In this document: piece after piece, positions 1-5,479 of the stretch | Layout: every line of letters starts with the position of its first letter | Position numbering within the stretch: the first letter of the stretch is position 1 | Origin: a virus | Lineage: Duplodnaviria; Heunggongvirae; Uroviricota; Caudoviricetes | IMG/VR virus record: IMGVR_UViG_2660238548_000026 | Span: 1 to 5,479 of that record | Direction: 5' to 3' (one strand) | DNA length: 5,479 nucleotides | The notes under the pieces: model-generated | Databases searched by the model: none | What the model saw: the letters and a program-made list of their open reading frames with translations, nothing else | Told to the model about the DNA's origin: nothing | Made by a program: the position numbers and the translations under genes

Positions 1-74
1 CCCGTAACGCCTCTGCCACGCGCGTAACGTGACAGGGATTAAAGGTAAACCAATTGGTTTTGCAAGTTTTTATT

Positions 75-1361
75 TTACCCCGCTTTCTTATGGGGCATAC
101 ATGGGACACTTTCAGATAGTCTTTTGTTAAGGAGTTCTATCTGTTCGTGATTGTTGTCTTTCATCCATGCTCCGTAAACATTGAATACCATTTGTGCGTT
201 TGTGTGGCCCATCTGGCTTGCGATAAAACTAGGATTAGCTCCTGCGGCAAGTGACCAGCATGCATAAGTATGCCTGGATTGGTACGATTTTCTGTGTCTC
301 AGACCTGCGCGTTTTAAGATACTTGTCCATGACTCCCTGATGGAGTCAACCTTGTAGTGAGGTCCGGACAACTGCTGCTGTTTTGTTACCTGAGGACTAA
401 AAACAAAAGTGCATTTATGCACAGCAGTTCTCCCATATTCCCTCTGCTTCACCTCTACAGAATGTTGCTTTCCAAGCATGGTCATTTCCGCCTGGCTTTT
501 AAGAGCATCAATAGCTGGTTGAACCAGATGAATTGTCCTTCCGGTGCCTGCATCGGTTTTTGGTGGAGTGAATTCGCCAAGTTTTGTATAATTTCTACGG
601 ATGGTTATAGTCCTTGCTTTAAGGTCTATATCTTCCCATGCCAGCGATACCAACTCCCCGTGACGAATACCCGTGTATACAGCGAGAATCCACAGGTTTT
701 TTGTTTGTTGATGACGGCAAGCCTCAATAAAACGAATAAATTCGTCACGGGTGAGAGGATCTGGTTTTACCTTGGACTTTTTTAAGGGAGCCAGACCGTT
801 AAATGGGTTTCCTGAGGTATAACCATTATCTGTTGCAAATTGAAACATTCCAGCTATGGTTGTCATATAGTAGTTTACCGTGACCACTGAGCGCCCTTTT
901 ATGGAAGAAGTCTTTCCATTAGAAAGCTTTTGGTAACCGGTCAACAAATCTCTCCTTACGAAAAGTAAATCCTCTTTTGTTATGGATGAAACCAGTTTTT
1001 TTTCACCTAACATTGGTAACATGTTTTTAATTACTGACTGGTAACGGTTAAGTGCATTCGCACAAATCTCAATTTTCTTAAGGTCCAACCATTTTTCCGA
1101 AAGTGCCTTAACGGTTATCTCTCTTTTTCCCAGACCAAAGTGTTTCAGGTTAGGGGAATTAGGGAACTGCGCGGCGTAGTCGAAACTCCCCATTCTGATT
1201 GCAAAACAAACGGAAGTGCGAAGTTCACCAGCGATCTTCCGGTTTTTGGCTGTGTCAGGAACACCGAGGTTTTCTCTGACACGTTTGCCATTATAGTGAA
1301 ACCATATACGGAGTGATCCTCCATGGTTTTCAACGCCTGTCGGGTATGATGCGTTACTCAT
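75..1361 (-). CDS. int: Tyrosine-type site-specific integrase, 428 aa, Rac/IntR-like with an N-terminal arm-binding domain of the DUF3596 type
   Basis: Full-length ORF. C-terminal catalytic motifs are visible: 'TGIRHGE' (box I Arg), 'HRKSYQSRHTYACWSLAAGANPSFIASQMGHTNAQMVFNVYGAWM' (His/Arg/His and the terminal Tyr). N-terminus 'PTGVE...RIWFHYNGKRVRE' resembles Rac-type integrases as I recall them. SD 'GGGAGG' lies about 6 nt upstream of the ATG at 1361. Confidence 0.9.
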   Translation of the reverse strand: MSNASYPTGVENHGGSLRIWFHYNGKRVRENLGVPDTAKNRKIAGELRTSVCFAIRMGSFDYAAQFPNSPNLKHFGLGKREITVKALSEKWLDLKKIEICANALNRYQSVIKNMLPMLGEKKLVSSITKEDLLFVRRDLLTGYQKLSNGKTSSIKGRSVVTVNYYMTTIAGMFQFATDNGYTSGNPFNGLAPLKKSKVKPDPLTRDEFIRFIEACRHQQTKNLWILAVYTGIRHGELVSLAWEDIDLKARTITIRRNYTKLGEFTPPKTDAGTGRTIHLVQPAIDALKSQAEMTMLGKQHSVEVKQREYGRTAVHKCTFVFSPQVTKQQQLSGPHYKVDSIRESWTSILKRAGLRHRKSYQSRHTYACWSLAAGANPSFIASQMGHTNAQMVFNVYGAWMKDNNHEQIELLNKRLSESVPCMPHKKAG

Positions 1362-1394
1362 TAAACCTCCCAGACGTCCAGGAGCATTAACAGG

Positions 1395-1649
1395 TTAACC
1401 GGAACTTGCATTTTTGGCACCTGGTTGTTTCTGGTTTTCGATCCATCGCATAATTTCTTCGATGTTGTACAGGCATTCACTGTAATGCCCAGGATCACCT
1501 TCTACAGCGTAATGGCGGTATTCTTTTCCCTGCATCCATGACTTTCTTCTGGCCCGCTCGATGGTGCCGGGCTTTAGCCCTGTTGATGCAATAAGGACTC
1601 TCTCCGTACACCATTTGCTGGGGGTTATCTGATAGATGATTGTCTGCAT
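1395..1649 (-). CDS. xis: Excisionase-like / recombination directionality factor (84 aa)
   Basis: Small basic ORF immediately upstream of int and co-oriented with it (33-nt gap). SD 'GAGG' about 6 nt before the ATG. The assignment rests mainly on position and size; the sequence similarity to excisionase-like proteins is my recollection only. Confidence 0.55.
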   Translation of the reverse strand: MQTIIYQITPSKWCTERVLIASTGLKPGTIERARRKSWMQGKEYRHYAVEGDPGHYSECLYNIEEIMRWIENQKQPGAKNASSG

Positions 1650-1667
1650 GCCAACCTCATAAAACTT

Positions 1668-1802
1668 TCATCCACGGCAGTGGAACCACACGTCAAACAT
1701 TCGTTTCACAACTTCACGGCAGTAGAAGCCGTCGACATCACGGGTCAGGTCGTAGCGATTGCCGAATGTCTTGCGAACCCAGAACTCAAAAGCCGTATGC
1801 AT
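1668..1802 (-). CDS. Hypothetical small protein, 44 aa (MHTAFEFWVRKTFGNRYDLTRDVDGFYCREVVKRMFDVWFHCRG)
   Basis: Not in the supplied ORF track (below its size cutoff). Near-consensus SD 'GGAGGTGA' ends 6 nt before the ATG at 1802, and the SD overlaps the TGA stop of the upstream 80-aa gene. The ORF fills the gap between that gene and xis; its stop is 18 nt before the xis ATG. Confidence 0.45.
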   Translation of the reverse strand: MHTAFEFWVRKTFGNRYDLTRDVDGFYCREVVKRMFDVWFHCRG

Positions 1803-1805
1803 GTA

Positions 1806-2048
1806 TCACCTCCGTTGCATTGCGCGTAATTTTTTCAGGCGCATTTCCTGCTCAGTGCCCGCCAGAATTTTGCGGTACTCCTGTTGGTCAATATGTTCGA
1901 ACAGGTTGTTGAACTCACCAATGCGTACCCGTCCGGAGCGCCCGTCCATGCGTCGAAAGAACACTGAGTGCTGAGTACTGCGAGTAATCACCACAGGGTA
2001 TCCGGCTCTGTCCGTGTATATCTGACCACGTTGAATCAGAGCGAACAT
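1806..2048 (-). CDS. Hypothetical phage protein, 80 aa (possibly DUF4222-like)
   Basis: ORF in operon context. Its ATG sits 4 nt after the TAA stop of the upstream 28-aa peptide ORF ('TAAAGGAATG'). The family assignment is a weak recollection. Confidence 0.5.
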   Translation of the reverse strand: MFALIQRGQIYTDRAGYPVVITRSTQHSVFFRRMDGRSGRVRIGEFNNLFEHIDQQEYRKILAGTEQEMRLKKLRAMQRR

Positions 2049-2052
2049 TCCT

Positions 2053-2139
2053 TTATCCCCAGCGGAAAAGCGAATACAGAATAAATGCCACCGCTATTGC
2101 AACTCCAACTGCGGTGAATGCTTCAGGCCAATTCATCAT
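2053..2139 (-). CDS. Small hydrophobic single-helix peptide, 28 aa (MMNWPEAFTAVGVAIAVAFILYSLFRWG)
   Basis: Not in the ORF track. Strong SD 'AGGAGG' 4 nt upstream of the ATG. The start overlaps the stop of the DUF550/DUF551 gene (ATGA), and the stop is 4 nt upstream of the next gene's ATG. Composition matches a single transmembrane helix with aromatic/basic flanks. Confidence 0.4.
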   Translation of the reverse strand: MMNWPEAFTAVGVAIAVAFILYSLFRWG

Positions 2140-2801
2140 TTCACCTCCTGCGGCGGTTCTGGTAGCTGCATCCAGTGGGTTACCTCTTTGAGATACAGGT
2201 CTTCGCCATCACCGTCATCCCAAGTGGGCTTGCCATCATTAAACCAGTCGCCATATACGCCGACCTGAGTGTTGGGGATGTTTGGTGGGTAGTTGTTTTT
2301 AAAGTCAGCTGCTAACACATAGCATTGTCGCTCTCCCATTTCAGGCATTCGCTCACTACAGCTTATCCAACCATCCGGAGTTACCGGAGAGTTGCCGGGT
2401 TCTTTAATGTGCAAACGAGGCTCACCATCTTTTGGTTCAGGCCACTGGCGCTCCATGTTGATCTTCAATTTATTTTCCATAGCAGCGGTAATTTCAGCAT
2501 CACTGATACCAGCACGGCGCTGTGCATCCCACAACAGGAACTGCATATCAGCCCACTCGCTGAGATCGTCAGGTTCGGCTGCGGCTTCCAGTGCCTCTTT
2601 TGAGAGATGTTTCAGCGGACCAATGGGGCCAACGCAGCCAAATGTGGAGTCAGACCATTTGGCATGCTCGTGGCGAATCAGTTCGCGTTCCAGTGATGCC
2701 AGTGCAATTCGTGCCAGTTCCATTTGTTCGCCACGAGTAAGCCCGTTTTCAAGCGGATTTTTAATGAACAATTCAATACGTTCTTTGGTAATAGTGGTCA
2801 T
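2136..2801 (-). CDS. DUF550 (dATP/dGTP pyrophosphohydrolase-type N-terminal domain) fused to DUF551, 221 aa
   Basis: N-terminal region '...EWADMQFLLWDAQRRAGISDAEITAAMENKLKINMERQWPEP...' and C-terminal '...GDWFNDGKPTWDDG...VTHWMQLPEPP' match my memory of DUF550 and DUF551 proteins common in enterobacterial prophages. SD 'AAGGA' about 8 nt upstream; 10-nt gap to the upstream gene's stop. Confidence 0.7.
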   Translation of the reverse strand: MTTITKERIELFIKNPLENGLTRGEQMELARIALASLERELIRHEHAKWSDSTFGCVGPIGPLKHLSKEALEAAAEPDDLSEWADMQFLLWDAQRRAGISDAEITAAMENKLKINMERQWPEPKDGEPRLHIKEPGNSPVTPDGWISCSERMPEMGERQCYVLAADFKNNYPPNIPNTQVGVYGDWFNDGKPTWDDGDGEDLYLKEVTHWMQLPEPPQEVK

Positions 2802-2811
2802 TTGTTAGTCC

Positions 2812-3567
2812 TTAAAGTGCTAGTTGCAATTGCATTTCAAAGCGGTCGCGTTGTTCACAATACGCAAGAGAACCAGGGCTATTGTGTGCCTCAATCCGTT
2901 CTACCATTAATGCTGCGCGTGTCTCTTTACTTGCAGGTGCATAAGCCCCAGACCAGGCTTTATCAATACCGATGTTTCGAGCGACGTTCGTACTATCTGC
3001 GCTGGCTAAGGGTAATTTTGTGAATATCAGCGGATTTAACATGCGCAATCCATGTAGTTTCGTAACCGGCTGACCATGCCCATCAACAATGTGACGAATC
3101 AGGTCTTTCATTCTGGCTACCGCAAGAGTTGGGCGCTTTACGTCATAGTCGCCACAACTACCGATAGCCACTCGCGGAAACTCATTGCACAAATGAATAA
3201 ATCGCTCGTCACTTTCATTCATGTGCCACACTGGAACGCCAGCTAGTTTTCCGTGAGGCCACTCATTCAGAAGCGCATCATTTTCCTCCTCTCCGCCATC
3301 AATAACATCCGGGATAATGGCAAAATCGAATCCTGGGTGATTCTTCCAGCGAGCAACAAACTCGTAGTAATCGCTCCAGTCGATTTTGTTTTTGCCAGCT
3401 GCTTTCCAGGCGGTGAATGCACCGTTGTCCAGCGCGAACGACTGACAGTATTCAGCCGCGAGATTGATCTGGCCTGAATGCGCAAAACTGATAAACGCAT
3501 GTCGCCCTTTCCATGCTCTCATTGCGCACGTATCAGGAGTAATAGGCCCACCGTGGTAGTGAATCAT
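2812..3567 (-). CDS. TGT-like protein (queuine/archaeosine tRNA-ribosyltransferase-like motifs), candidate DpdA-like 7-deazaguanine DNA transglycosylase, about 251 aa
   Basis: The ORF track extends to 3609, but the ATG at 3567 (MIHYHGGP...) has SD 'AAGGAG' upstream and lies 1 nt after the Ea22-like stop, whereas the ATG at 3609 has no SD and would overlap that gene by 41 nt. Motifs in TGT order: 'LDNGAF' (res 46-51, cf. TGT 'TDSGGFQ'), 'AIIPDVID' (cf. 'IFDEC'), 'VAIGSCGDYD', 'ADSTNVARNIG' (res 190-200, cf. E. coli Tgt 'FDCVMPTRNARNG'). No C-terminal CxCxxC...H zinc subdomain. Confidence is for the CDS; the functional call is about 0.5. Confidence 0.7.
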   Translation of the reverse strand: MIHYHGGPITPDTCAMRAWKGRHAFISFAHSGQINLAAEYCQSFALDNGAFTAWKAAGKNKIDWSDYYEFVARWKNHPGFDFAIIPDVIDGGEEENDALLNEWPHGKLAGVPVWHMNESDERFIHLCNEFPRVAIGSCGDYDVKRPTLAVARMKDLIRHIVDGHGQPVTKLHGLRMLNPLIFTKLPLASADSTNVARNIGIDKAWSGAYAPASKETRAALMVERIEAHNSPGSLAYCEQRDRFEMQLQLAL

Positions 3568-3568
3568 C

Positions 3569-3976
3569 TCACTCTCCTTTGATGCGAATGCCAGTAGCGC
3601 GGATTGCATCGATGACTTCAGAAACTTTGTATGCCATTACCGTTTGGTAATCATCGTGAAAATCTGTTCGATGAAGCATGCTGCTACGTTCCGGGAGCAG
3701 TATTTCCCGCGCTTCCAGTTCTGCAATGCGCTTTTTTGCTGCTTCCAGTTCATCCAGTAATTCCAGCACGGTAGCCGGATTAGCCTTGGCAACAAAATCC
3801 CGGACTGGCTTACAATCAATCTCCGCAATGGGTTGATACGATGTGTAGCCATGCTGTCTTGTATAACTACCGTGACGAATAACGAAAAAATCACCATTTA
3901 TTTTTTTAGCCTGCCACTTATCTTCACCGGCTTTCTCTGCCGCTTCACGCAGTGCCTGAGAGTTAATTTCGCTCAC
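3569..3976 (-). CDS. Ead/Ea22-like family protein, 135 aa
   Basis: N-terminus 'MSEINSQALREAAEKA...' and coiled-coil 'LELLDELEAAKKRIAELEA' resemble lambdoid Ead/Ea22-like proteins as I recall them. The start is GTG at 3976 (shown as M in the track), overlapping the TraR-like stop (GTGA), with SD 'GAGAGG' about 8 nt upstream. Confidence 0.65.
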   Translation of the reverse strand: MSEINSQALREAAEKAGEDKWQAKKINGDFFVIRHGSYTRQHGYTSYQPIAEIDCKPVRDFVAKANPATVLELLDELEAAKKRIAELEAREILLPERSSMLHRTDFHDDYQTVMAYKVSEVIDAIRATGIRIKGE

Positions 3977-4194
3977 TTCGAACCTCTCTGTTTACTGATA
4001 AGCTCCAGATCCTCCTGGCAACTTGCACAAGTCCGACAACCCTGAACGACCAGGCGTCTTCGTTCATCTATGGGATCGCCACACTCACAACAATGAGTGG
4101 CGGATATAGTCTGGTAGTTCAGACGACGCATTTTTATTGCTGTATTGCGCTGTAATTCTTCAATTTCTGATGCTGAATCAATGATGTCCGCCAT
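3973..4194 (-). CDS. TraR/DksA-family C4-type zinc-finger protein, 73 aa
   Basis: Four-Cys motif '...THCCECGDPIDERRRLVVQGCRTCASCQE...' matches the phage TraR/DksA C4 zinc-finger pattern (Cx2C...Cx2C with 'G.PI...RR'). ATG at 4194 with 'AGGGA' upstream; first gene after the 4195-4292 intergenic gap. Confidence 0.75.
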   Translation of the reverse strand: MADIIDSASEIEELQRNTAIKMRRLNYQTISATHCCECGDPIDERRRLVVQGCRTCASCQEDLELISKQRGSK

Positions 4195-4243
4195 CTTTCA
4201 TTAATCCCTGAATTGTTGGTTAATACGCTTGAGGGTAAATGCG

Positions 4244-4272
4244 AATAATAAAAAAGGAGCCTGTAGCTCCCT
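4244..4272 (-). terminator. Candidate rho-independent terminator (minus-strand transcript)
   Basis: On the minus strand: AGGGAGC-TACAG-GCUCCUU hairpin (5 GC-rich pairs, extendable to 7 with a G.U wobble) followed by UUUUUUAUUAUU, 23 nt after the stop of the 4293.. gene. It lies in the only sizeable non-coding gap of the operon. Confidence 0.45.
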
Positions 4273-4292
4273 GATGATTTTGCTTTTCATGT

Positions 4293-4574
4293 TCACCGTT
4301 CCTTAAAAACGCCGTTTAACATGCCGATTGCCAGGCTTAAATGAGTCGGTGTGAATCCCATCAGCGTTACCGTTTCGCGGTGCTTCTTCAGTACGCTACG
4401 GCAAATGTCATCGACGTTTTTATCCGGAAACTGCTGTCTGGCTTTTTTGATTTCAGAATTAGCCTGACGGGCAATGCTGCGAAGGGCGTTTTCCTGCTGA
4501 GGTGTCACTGAACAAGCCCCATGTCGGCAAGCATAAGCACACAGAATATGAAGCCCGCTGCCAGAAAAATGCAT
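4293..4574 (-). CDS. Hypothetical phage protein occupying the slot of lambda orf61; start uncertain (93 aa from ATG 4574, or 71 aa from GTG 4508)
   Basis: The C-terminal ~70 residues look protein-like ('...IARQANSEIKKARQQFPDKNVDDICRSVLKKHRETVTLMGFTPTHLSLAIGMLNGVFKER'). The ATG at 4574 has no SD, and the first 22 residues are Cys/His/Gly-rich and overlap a more plausible alternative-frame peptide ORF. GTG at 4508 would overlap that peptide's TGA stop (GTGA), the same junction type as at 3973-3976. Confidence 0.5.
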   Translation of the reverse strand: MHFSGSGLHILCAYACRHGACSVTPQQENALRSIARQANSEIKKARQQFPDKNVDDICRSVLKKHRETVTLMGFTPTHLSLAIGMLNGVFKER

Positions 4575-4588
4575 TCAGTGGTTGTCAT
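4505..4588 (-). CDS. Candidate small hydrophobic peptide, 27 aa (MTTTECIFLAAGFIFCVLMLADMGLVQ)
   Basis: Not in the ORF track. ATG overlaps the TGA stop of orf63 (ATGA at 4585-4588); its stop overlaps the in-frame GTG at 4508 of the downstream gene. The peptide is helix-like and hydrophobic. The SD is weak ('AGG' 2 nt upstream), so expression would depend on translational coupling. Confidence 0.3.
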   Translation of the reverse strand: MTTTECIFLAAGFIFCVLMLADMGLVQ

Positions 4589-4776
4589 ACCTGGTCTCTT
4601 TCATCTGCTTCTGCTTTCGCCACCATCATTTCCAGCTTTTGTGAAAGGGATGTGGCTAACGTATGAAATTCTTCGTCTGTTTCTACTGGTATTGGCACAA
4701 ACCTGACTCCAATTTGAGCAAGGCTATGTGCCATCTCAATACTCGTTCTTAACTCAACAGGAGATGCTTTGTGCAT
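4585..4776 (-). CDS. orf63: Homolog of phage lambda orf63 (63 aa, function unknown)
   Basis: 63-aa ORF overlapping the downstream orf60a by 28 nt, the same length and overlap geometry I recall for lambda orf63/orf60a. The sequence appears near-identical to lambda orf63 as I remember it. Confidence 0.75.
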   Translation of the reverse strand: MHKASPVELRTSIEMAHSLAQIGVRFVPIPVETDEEFHTLATSLSQKLEMMVAKAEADERDQV

Positions 4777-4931
4777 ACCGCCTCCCGTTTATTATTTATC
4801 TTCTCAGCCAGCCGCTGTGCTTTCAGTGGATTTCTGATAACAGAAAGGCCGGGAAATACCCAGCCTCGCTTTGTAACGGAGTAGACGAAAGTGATCGCGC
4901 CTACCCGGATATTATCGTGAGGATGCGTCAT
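4749..4931 (-). CDS. orf60a: Homolog of phage lambda orf60a (60 aa from the second ATG; 62 aa from the ATG at 4937)
   Basis: The ORF track starts at 4937 (MAMTHP...). The second ATG at 4931 overlaps the exo TGA stop (ATGA) and gives 60 aa, matching the lambda orf60a arrangement as I recall it. Confidence 0.75.
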
Positions 4932-5479
4932 CGCCATTGCTCCCCAAATACAAAACCAATTTCAGCCAGTGCCTCGTCCATTTTTTCGATGAACTCCGGC
5001 ACCATCTCGTCAAAACTCGCCATGTACTTTTCATTCCGCTCAATCACGACATAATGCAGTCCTTCACGCTTCATACGCGGGTCATAGTTGGCAAAGTACC
5101 AGGCATCTTTTCGTGTCACCCACATGCTGTACTGCACCTGGGCCATGTAAGCCGATTTTATGGCCTCGAAACCACCGAGCCGGAATTTCATGAAATCCCG
5201 GGAGGTAAACGGGCATTTCAGTTCAAGGCCGTTGCCGTCACTGCATAAACCATCCGGAGAGCAGGCGGTGCGCATACTTTCGTCGCGATAGATGATCGGG
5301 GATTCAGTAACATTCACGCCGGAAGTAAACTCAAACAGGGCTCTGGCGTCGTTTTCGTACTGTTTTCCCCAGGCCAGCGCTTTAGCGTTAACTTCCGGAG
5401 CCACACCGGTGCAAACCTCAGCAAGCAGGGTGTGGAAGTAGGACATTTTCATGTCAGGCCACTTTTTTCCGGAGCGGGG
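4928..5479 (-). CDS. exo: Lambda-type exonuclease (Red-alpha / Exo), 3' portion; N-terminus lies beyond the right edge of the window
   Basis: The translated 174 aa ('[35 protein letters not shown]...[19 protein letters not shown]') corresponds to the C-terminal ~175 residues of lambda Exo (226 aa) as I recall it. The reading frame stays open to the window edge, so the M at 5452 is an internal Met, not the start. Confidence 0.9.

Follow-up and report, generated by a model that had tools for sequence, protein, structure and literature searches.

What does a stand-alone protein resembling tRNA-guanine transglycosylase (TGT) do in the early region of a temperate phage? The question is raised by one gene in a 5,479-nt stretch of viral DNA (IMG/VR record IMGVR_UViG_2660238548_000026, positions 1 to 5,479; hereafter the window), which covers the left arm of a prophage of the lambdoid type, all of its genes lying on the minus strand. 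An earlier note on this DNA had proposed that the gene product is a TGT-like enzyme of the DpdA type, acting on DNA rather than on tRNA. Homology to a genetically validated phage DpdA and a fold search support that proposal, the core of which stood up to each computational check that the note had suggested. We consider the product to be probably a minimal, stand-alone DNA-guanine transglycosylase of the phage DpdA family, belonging to the "DpdA-only" gamma-proteobacterial clade and using 7-deazaguanine of host origin. The coding sequence and its ribosome-binding signal are as follows.

2812–3567, minus strand: coding sequence of the 251-aa stand-alone DpdA-type (TGT-superfamily) transglycosylase, with the stop codon TAA at 2814–2812
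3574–3578, minus strand: strong Shine-Dalgarno sequence AGGAG, 6 nt 5′ of the ATG at 3567–3565, read directly from the sequence

The open reading frame ending at 2812 offers two starts, the ATG at 3567 (251 aa) and the first ATG at 3609 (265 aa). The longer frame was ruled out by the Shine-Dalgarno sequence, by its overlap with the upstream Ea22-like gene and by the RefSeq call, as WP_000582233.1 has the same 251-aa start. The product length given in the earlier note was thereby confirmed.

At the sequence level, the protein matched PHROG 887 with E = 2.3e-103. The same group takes in the DpdA of Escherichia phage CAjan (E = 8e-96) and the DpdA proteins of Salmonella phage 7-11 and Pantoea phage MED16. 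As reported in PMC6884629, deletion of CAjan dpdA removes dPreQ0 from the phage DNA. Pairwise BLASTP to CAjan DpdA gave E = 3e-9 at an identity of only ~ 15–25%, with LDNGAF paired with LDSGAF and ADSTN with CDSSS. For profile comparisons, we aligned 70 diverse relatives of the window protein, taken from an exhaustive search (813 clusters at 50% identity, E ≤ 1e-3), and 27 sequences of the CAjan family; hhalign related the two families with 99.0% probability (E = 4e-18, 174 columns). A merged profile of 48 sequences, comprising the target clade, 7-11, MED16 and the CAjan family, was searched against 177,635 distinct PDB sequences and returned a sole match, 7ui4_A, the DpdA of Salmonella Montevideo (E = 0.032, two stretches). 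Judged from the PHROG 887 match and the hhalign result, the resemblance is far beyond chance.

The AlphaFold2 model, built with the alignment of 70 relatives (pLDDT 94.1, pTM 0.89), showed alternating strands and helices that form the TGT-type (β/α)8 barrel of phage DpdA. When the model was compared with the PDB by Foldseek, the matches were weak and to generic TIM barrels, TGT ranking 35th. In a fold search calibrated on CAjan DpdA, the top four matches of the model were all members of the TGT superfamily, and DpdA and Cap10 were structurally nearer to it than TGT. The calibration used a model of a 99%-identical copy of CAjan DpdA (pLDDT 78.6), which in the same search scored 14.6 with DpdA, 12.5 with TGT, 12.4 with QTRT2, 11.5 with ArcTGT and 10.7 with Cap10; generic barrels scored ≤ 8.6, below all five. 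As far as the models tell, the window protein is a more stripped-down barrel than CAjan DpdA and relatively more Cap10-like.

The active site was examined residue by residue, and the codons of interest are listed here.

3427–3429, minus strand: D47 (in LDNGAF), predicted general acid/base, corresponding to Salmonella DpdA D95, CAjan D63 and Tgt D89
3307–3309, minus strand: D87 (in IPDVID), candidate base-recognition Asp, corresponding by order to DpdA D130 and Tgt D143
3223–3225, minus strand: H115, at the end of a barrel strand, candidate counterpart of DpdA H181 and Cap10 K154 (Watson-Crick edge readout)
3151–3162, minus strand: G136-S137-C138-G139, HMMER-aligned to G206-G207-M208-V209 of Salmonella DpdA
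3052–3054, minus strand: H172 (in KLHGLRM), corresponding to DpdA H234 and CAjan H187
2995–2997, minus strand: D191 (in SADST), predicted nucleophile, corresponding to Salmonella DpdA D256, CAjan D206 and Tgt D264

The motifs LDNGAF (residues 46–51), AIIPDVID (83–90), VAIGSCGDYD (133–142) and ADSTNVARNIG (190–200) lie exactly where the earlier note had placed them, and the TGT segments that it cited for comparison (TDSGGFQ, IFDEC, YAVGGLAVG and FDCVMPTRNARNG) all occur literally in E. coli Tgt. In the merged profile, D47, A50, H115, G136, H172, D191 and S192 were invariant. The residues D47, H115, H172 and D191 sit at the C-terminal ends of barrel strands in the AlphaFold2 model. The chain numbering of 7ui4 equals the numbering of the paper plus 20, an offset that reproduces D95, F99, M208, V209, L236, D256 and F265. 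D47, present in all 70 relatives and all 48 profile sequences, aligned to chain D115 (D95), and F51 aligned to F99, the base gate. D191 was Asp in 69 of the 70 relatives and in 48/48; it aligned to chain D276 (D256) and was found in the S-x-D-S context. L174 corresponds, by the 7ui4 alignment, to L236, which stacks on the base. According to PMC10164549, the substitution D95A or D256A in Salmonella DpdA abolishes guanine exchange.

The two histidines were also strongly conserved. H115, which aligned to CAjan H132, occurred in 48/48 sequences drawn from the target clade, 7-11, MED16 and the CAjan family; its order along the chain suggests equivalence to DpdA H181. H172, likewise aligned to 7ui4, was found in 70/70 and 48/48 sequences, and its spacing makes it a candidate partner of the nucleophile, similar to H226 in the D248/H226 pair of Cap10 (10.1101/2025.04.06.647259). 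The earlier note had named D47, D87 and D191 as catalytic candidates. D47 and D191 held up on alignment to the solved DpdA; D87 is conserved (Asp in 69/70 relatives), and its placement as the base-recognition Asp is tentative. It lies three residues past the strand 80–84, in the same register as the invariant CAjan D105, three residues past the strand 98–102. However, MAFFT and hhalign pair D90, which is Asp in 39/70 relatives, and not D87, with the invariant CAjan Asp.

The fold and the catalytic Asp residues are common to TGT, and the PHROG name, "queuine tRNA-ribosyltransferase", recurs for the relatives in RefSeq phage records. Taken literally, these names describe a tRNA-guanine transglycosylase that alters host or phage tRNA. 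We find this very improbable. The name was inherited by homology, the host already has Tgt, and the closest characterised relatives act on DNA. The structure is nearer to DpdA and Cap10 than to TGT, no PF01702 match appeared even at E ≤ 1, and hhalign of the target family against the single sequence of E. coli Tgt gave no real match. The likeness to TGT drawn in the earlier note stood for the DpdA family and for the TGT-superfamily fold, and failed for the PF01702 profile. Its remark that the protein has two-thirds of the length of Tgt (251/375 = 0.67) and no zinc subdomain was accurate. E. coli Tgt, 375 residues long, combines an N-terminal β-sheet lid with surfaces that bind tRNA and a zinc subdomain (C302/C304/C307/H333). 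No CxCxxC motif corresponding to C302xC304xxC307 occurs in the window protein, and its five Cys residues (14, 41, 127, 138 and 237) are scattered and not conserved. We must also note that CxCxxC is absent from every phage DpdA compared, CAjan included, so that the missing zinc subdomain is no argument against a DNA transglycosylase.

If the target is DNA, the source of the base has to be considered. No que genes were found in the window or within 20 kb on either side in a near-identical prophage. The Stx1a_EH2115 phage, which carries the gene and whose genome is complete, and 80 viral contigs with relatives were searched by tblastn with CAjan FolE, QueD, QueE, QueC and the transporter; this gave no match, at a limited sensitivity, given that the QueD of CAjan and that of Caulobacter phage DMCA do not detect each other. 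The negative result is backed by Hutinet 2019, where BTP1, SPN3UB, SfI and HK106 were classed as "DpdA only" with PSI-BLAST/HHpred. As the phage lacks preQ0 genes, the base must come from the host queuosine pathway; the dependence on the host pool put forward in the earlier note is thus upheld.

Chemical data on related systems indicate what such an arrangement may yield. As reported in PMC6884629, the DpdA of phage 9g, expressed alone in E. coli, produced dPreQ0 in plasmid DNA at 0.03–0.3% of G, a direct precedent for drawing on the host pool, and the DpdA-only phages 7-11 and MED16 contained dADG at 0.02% and 0.13% of G, respectively. MED16 DNA was still cut at the G-containing restriction sites tested, with no visible protection. 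Because the tested DpdA-only phages replace only 0.02–0.13% of G, and protection was not visible in MED16, an anti-restriction role is doubtful; restriction evasion was the weakest part of the interpretation in the earlier note.

By analogy with TGT and DpdA, D191 would attack C1′ of a deoxyguanosine flipped into the barrel pocket, and D47 would help the guanine leave, giving a covalent enzyme–DNA intermediate. A free 7-deazaguanine base would then attack this intermediate and be installed in the DNA after replication. The base supplied by the host queuosine pathway would be preQ0, possibly preQ1 or ADG. From the tested DpdA-only phages, the expected outcome would be a sparse and probably sequence-specific modification, with ~ 0.01–0.3% of G present as dADG/dPreQ0, and not a bulk replacement. 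Homology, fold, conserved catalytic residues, missing pathway genes and purifying selection are what the analysis shows; action on DNA, the base used, the time of expression and the gain for the phage are inferred.

It is also possible to read the mechanism as stopping halfway. TGT and DpdA begin their reaction by excising a base, with Asp forming the covalent intermediate; genes that would supply a base are missing from the phage; and glycosylases acting on deazaguanine DNA are a known defence theme (10.1101/2025.10.29.685425). The protein could then be an enzyme of the DNA glycosylase type, taking out guanine, plain or modified, and inserting no new base, for instance against 7-deazaguanine-modified competitors or host DNA. 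We think this improbable. The defence glycosylases are described in the accessible part of the same preprint as structurally similar to canonical DNA glycosylases, and TGT is not mentioned in that part. Moreover, in the relatives 7-11 and MED16 the net effect is that dADG is inserted, the place of the gene in the operon implies that it is expressed while the phage itself replicates, and a member of the clade is translationally coupled to QueD, which serves base synthesis. This coupling is also a positive link of the clade to the pathway. In that member, Caulobacter phage DMCA, the gene of a protein with the clade motifs and 37% identity overlaps start-to-stop with a 98-aa QueD/PTPS-like gene (locus L010, 4705–5726 for the pair), whose PF01242 score is 22.5 bits at a Pfam cut-off of 22.4. 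No further que gene is annotated within 5 kb, and this temperate phage would thus have part of a pathway.

Several results weigh against identifying the window protein as a DNA transglycosylase of the DpdA family. The 251-aa protein matched no Pfam or NCBIfam family at E ≤ 1, PF01702 included, and had no PADLOC match. In the PDB, phmmer found no match to the protein, and the target family profile retrieved just GCN4 coiled-coil noise. We do not hold the silence of the curated libraries against membership, since the validated CAjan DpdA fails the same tests, being without a Pfam match even at E ≤ 10; the CAjan family profile gave no PDB match either. The first motif reads DNGAF in the clade and DSGAF in the CAjan family (DNG versus DSG), and the pocket that faces the 7-substituent has the clade consensus GS[SC]G, as opposed to GGMV in CAjan and Salmonella DpdA. 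Ins8, the large insertion proposed to bind DNA in bacterial DpdA according to PMC10164549, is not present in the 251-aa protein; net charge and pI (6.3 for the window protein versus a median of 5.75 in the validated CAjan family) are uninformative on DNA binding. Mycobacteriophage Orion, a DpdA-only phage whose host lacks the pathway, showed no modification (PMC6884629). Finally, literature searches found no experimental work on the DpdA of temperate phages, lambdoid and Stx phages included, nor on the close clade itself (BTP1 gp23, SPN3UB, SfI and the window protein).

The pocket difference deserves a closer description. The motif comparison continues in the same direction at the other segments: IPDVI[DG]G in the clade versus MASVLDG in the CAjan family at motif 2, HGLRM versus H[AG]FGI at the His strand, and SADST versus SCDSS at the nucleophile. 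According to the proposal in PMC10164549, preQ0 is held in Salmonella DpdA through its cyano group by the backbone of M208, and V209 keeps out larger substituents, whereas eukaryotic TGT lacks that valine side chain and takes queuine. In our alignment, the V209 position was Gly in 50/70 relatives, and the same pocket Gly was present in 7-11 (GCMG) and MED16 (GSSG). The GGMV pocket of the preQ0 type was not found in the window protein, which bears on the choice of substrate and not on family membership. The phages 7-11 and MED16 contain dADG and not dPreQ0, yet encode no known dADG-making enzyme. A re-tuned base specificity of the DpdA-only clade, by which a larger base or another one from the host is inserted (ADG as such, preQ1 or gut-salvaged queuine), would explain the dADG of these two phages; it is a speculative idea, drawn from a low-scoring alignment, and we hold it to be rather unlikely. 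If it were true, sparse marks in Stx and lambdoid phages could serve a purpose other than general anti-restriction. The contrast between GS[SC]G and GGMV may be a new observation.

The proximity to Cap10 raises the matter of a target other than DNA. Cap10 (9NTN), from type IV CBASS, binds deazaguanine on the N-terminus of the CD-NTase and works with the QueC-like Cap9, encoded in one defence operon (10.1101/2025.04.06.647259). A Cap10-like fold and a catalytic Asp/His pair were both found in the window protein, which could be a diverged TGT-like enzyme that places 7-deazaguanine on a non-DNA target, in the manner of a protein-linked base, or exchanges a different base because its pocket specificity has changed. 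We regard this as unlikely, albeit the least unlikely of the alternatives. The H/D pair is invariant in CAjan DpdA too, the sole sequence-level PDB match was DpdA and not Cap10, and Cap10 shares 9% identity and no sequence-level match with the window protein. No Cap9/QueC-like, CD-NTase or CBASS gene was found in the window, within 20 kb on each side of the gene in a related prophage or in the related loci, where Cap9/QueC was sought by tblastn with CAjan QueC as the query, at limited sensitivity; the lack of a PADLOC match points the same way. In addition, the tested DpdA-only phages 7-11 and MED16 do have a deazaguanine in their DNA, and the gene lies in a lytic early operon rather than in a defence slot expressed in the lysogen.

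Whether the gene is functional at all was judged from its evolution. The median ratio of nonsynonymous to synonymous substitution rates (dN/dS) was 0.04, with a maximum of 0.20, among 67 distinct alleles, and 77/79 related copies were full length. Catalytic residues were invariant down to ~ 33% identity over the 813 clusters. These features of purifying selection oppose the notion of an inactive remnant carried along by lambdoid mosaicism, which we believe to be the least probable alternative, even though the gene occurs in just 201/5426 complete E. coli genomes (~ 4%) and modification was very low or absent in those DpdA-only phages for which there are measurements. In those E. coli genomes, the gene is labelled "hypothetical protein" in RefSeq. 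As for the incomplete copies, one on an IMG/VR contig (L042, 10001–10753, ~ 91% identical) has a premature stop at codon 169, and another (L058) is cut off by the contig end. A product sharing 92.8% identity with the window protein is also encoded in OR850331.1, a record of 1719 bp entitled "Staphylococcus phage SA 1298 Kay", which is most likely mislabelled or a contaminant.

The preferred reading, a phage DpdA that draws on the host, places the gene among enzymes that were catalogued already. Group 3, "DpdA only", of Hutinet 2019 lists gp23 of Salmonella phage BTP1, the SPN3UB protein, gp34 of Shigella phage SfI, gp29 of E. coli phage HK106, 7-11 gp032 and MED16 gp38. Their identity to the window protein is 92.8% for BTP1 and SPN3UB, 67.6% for SfI and 35–38% for HK106, 7-11 and MED16. 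All share with it the motifs DNGAF, IPDVI[DG]G, PVWH, HGLRM and SADST and the lack of preQ0 genes, and where the phage is temperate, the gene sits at the corresponding accessory site of the early-left region, ahead of xis/int. We saw no substantive difference between the window gene and this group; it is the E. coli/Stx-phage allele. The chemically analysed members, 7-11 and MED16, are virulent phages whose proteins are ~ 36–38% identical to that of the window. In consequence, the gene is no discovery: this kind of gene, with a 93% identical counterpart in BTP1 gp23, had been listed in 2019, and the outcome is a correct identification and not a new system.

The pathway-linked enzymes are more distant. 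CAjan gp35 and the DpdA of Enterobacteria phage 9g (DpdA1) share the PHROG and the TIM barrel with the window protein; CAjan DpdA, however, has 306 residues with N- and C-terminal extensions, versus 251 here, and is encoded beside folE, queD, queE and queC, none of which is in the window. In CAjan, ~ 32% of G is replaced by dPreQ0 (PMC6884629). Salmonella Montevideo DpdA (7UI4) is described in PMC10164549 as a 413-aa protein with Ins1-3, a 128-residue Ins8 and a structural zinc site, all of them missing here; it needs the DpdB ATPase and lies in a dpdA-K defence island, and no such neighbours occur in the window.

Lambdoid prophages, Stx-converting ones among them, carry the gene, as do the well-studied Salmonella and Shigella phages BTP1, SPN3UB and SfI. 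Should the enzyme be active, the DNA of temperate enterobacterial phages would be marked with 7-deazaguanines taken from the host queuosine pathway. The host que genes would then bear on the fitness of these phages and on how sensitive they are to modification-dependent defences, for example GmrSD-like enzymes or glycosylases specific for deazaguanine. The practical yield is a correct annotation and a specific hint on pocket specificity.

The other genes of the window frame the expression of the DpdA-like gene and its mobility.

4928–5452, minus strand: YqaJ-type exonuclease
between the exonuclease and the TraR/DksA gene, minus strand: DUF1382 gene, then a small open reading frame
3973–4194, minus strand: TraR/DksA zinc finger gene
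3569–3976, minus strand: Ead/Ea22-like gene, upstream of the DpdA-like gene in the same operon (Pfam PF13935, E = 2.6e-17)
2136–2801, minus strand: dATP/dGTP pyrophosphohydrolase (PF04447, formerly DUF550) plus DUF551 protein, downstream (Pfam)
downstream of the 2136–2801 gene, minus strand: DUF4222, excisionase and integrase, in that order

The stop codon of the Ea22-like gene (TGA, 3571–3569) lies between the AGGAG and the ATG of the DpdA-like gene, one base before the ATG, which indicates that the latter is translationally coupled to the former. A search of the coding strand gave no sigma-70-like promoter. From lambda biology, we infer that the gene would be expressed by antiterminated early-left (pL-type) transcription during lytic growth and not in the lysogen. 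A terminator-like hairpin at 4254–4272 (minus strand; 8 pairs and a T-run) is located between the open reading frame 4293–4574 and the TraR/DksA-like gene; if real, it would make transcription of the DpdA-like gene depend on antitermination.

The Ea22-like, DUF550/DUF551 and int/xis neighbours are as the earlier note had described them, but the specific architecture that it singled out proved to be lineage-specific mosaicism. BTP1 has the gene order of the window (Ea22-like, DpdA-like, DUF550 (eaA), xis, int). In SfI, the order is exo, DUF1317, DpdA-like, DksA-like, DUF4222, xis, int, with neither Ea22 nor DUF550 beside the gene, and the arrangement in HK106 differs from both. Among 80 related loci, an Ea22-like gene was present in 22 and a pyrophosphohydrolase/DUF551 homologue in 30, and direct adjacency of these genes is essentially limited to relatives at least 98% identical. 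A functional module of Ea22, DUF550/DUF551 and the DpdA-like gene was rejected on these counts and on its absence in SfI. What is conserved is the slot and not the neighbours: an accessory region in the early-left part, with the recombination genes on one side and xis/int on the other.

The window itself is recombinant. Genes from 2812 to 5452 are ~ 100% identical to phage Stx1a_EH2115 and to the prophage of E. coli 13E0767, while the gene at 2136–2801 is 91.7% identical to those relatives over the first 157 aa only and diverges thereafter. Within the compared stretch 75–2801, the xis/int module (DUF1233 excisionase and Arm-DNA-bind_2 integrase) differs from that of the relatives, whose integrase shares 27% identity. 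Coverage of the window reached 80% or more in just 6/5426 complete E. coli genomes, split into 3–4 pieces. In the near-identical relatives (L012–L026 and L065), the next gene always begins 14 nt after the DpdA-like stop; its first 40–46 aa are roughly kept, and the remainder is variable (pyrophosphohydrolase plus DUF551, or other fusions). Such a pattern suggests that the PF04447 gene contains a mosaic junction. A related rearrangement was observed in HK106, where gp32 (L008, 2078–3085), located two genes upstream of the DpdA-like gene, is a 336-aa fusion of Ead/Ea22-like and DUF551 domains; the window has these domains on two different proteins, encoded on either side of the DpdA-like gene, and domains shuffle freely in this region.

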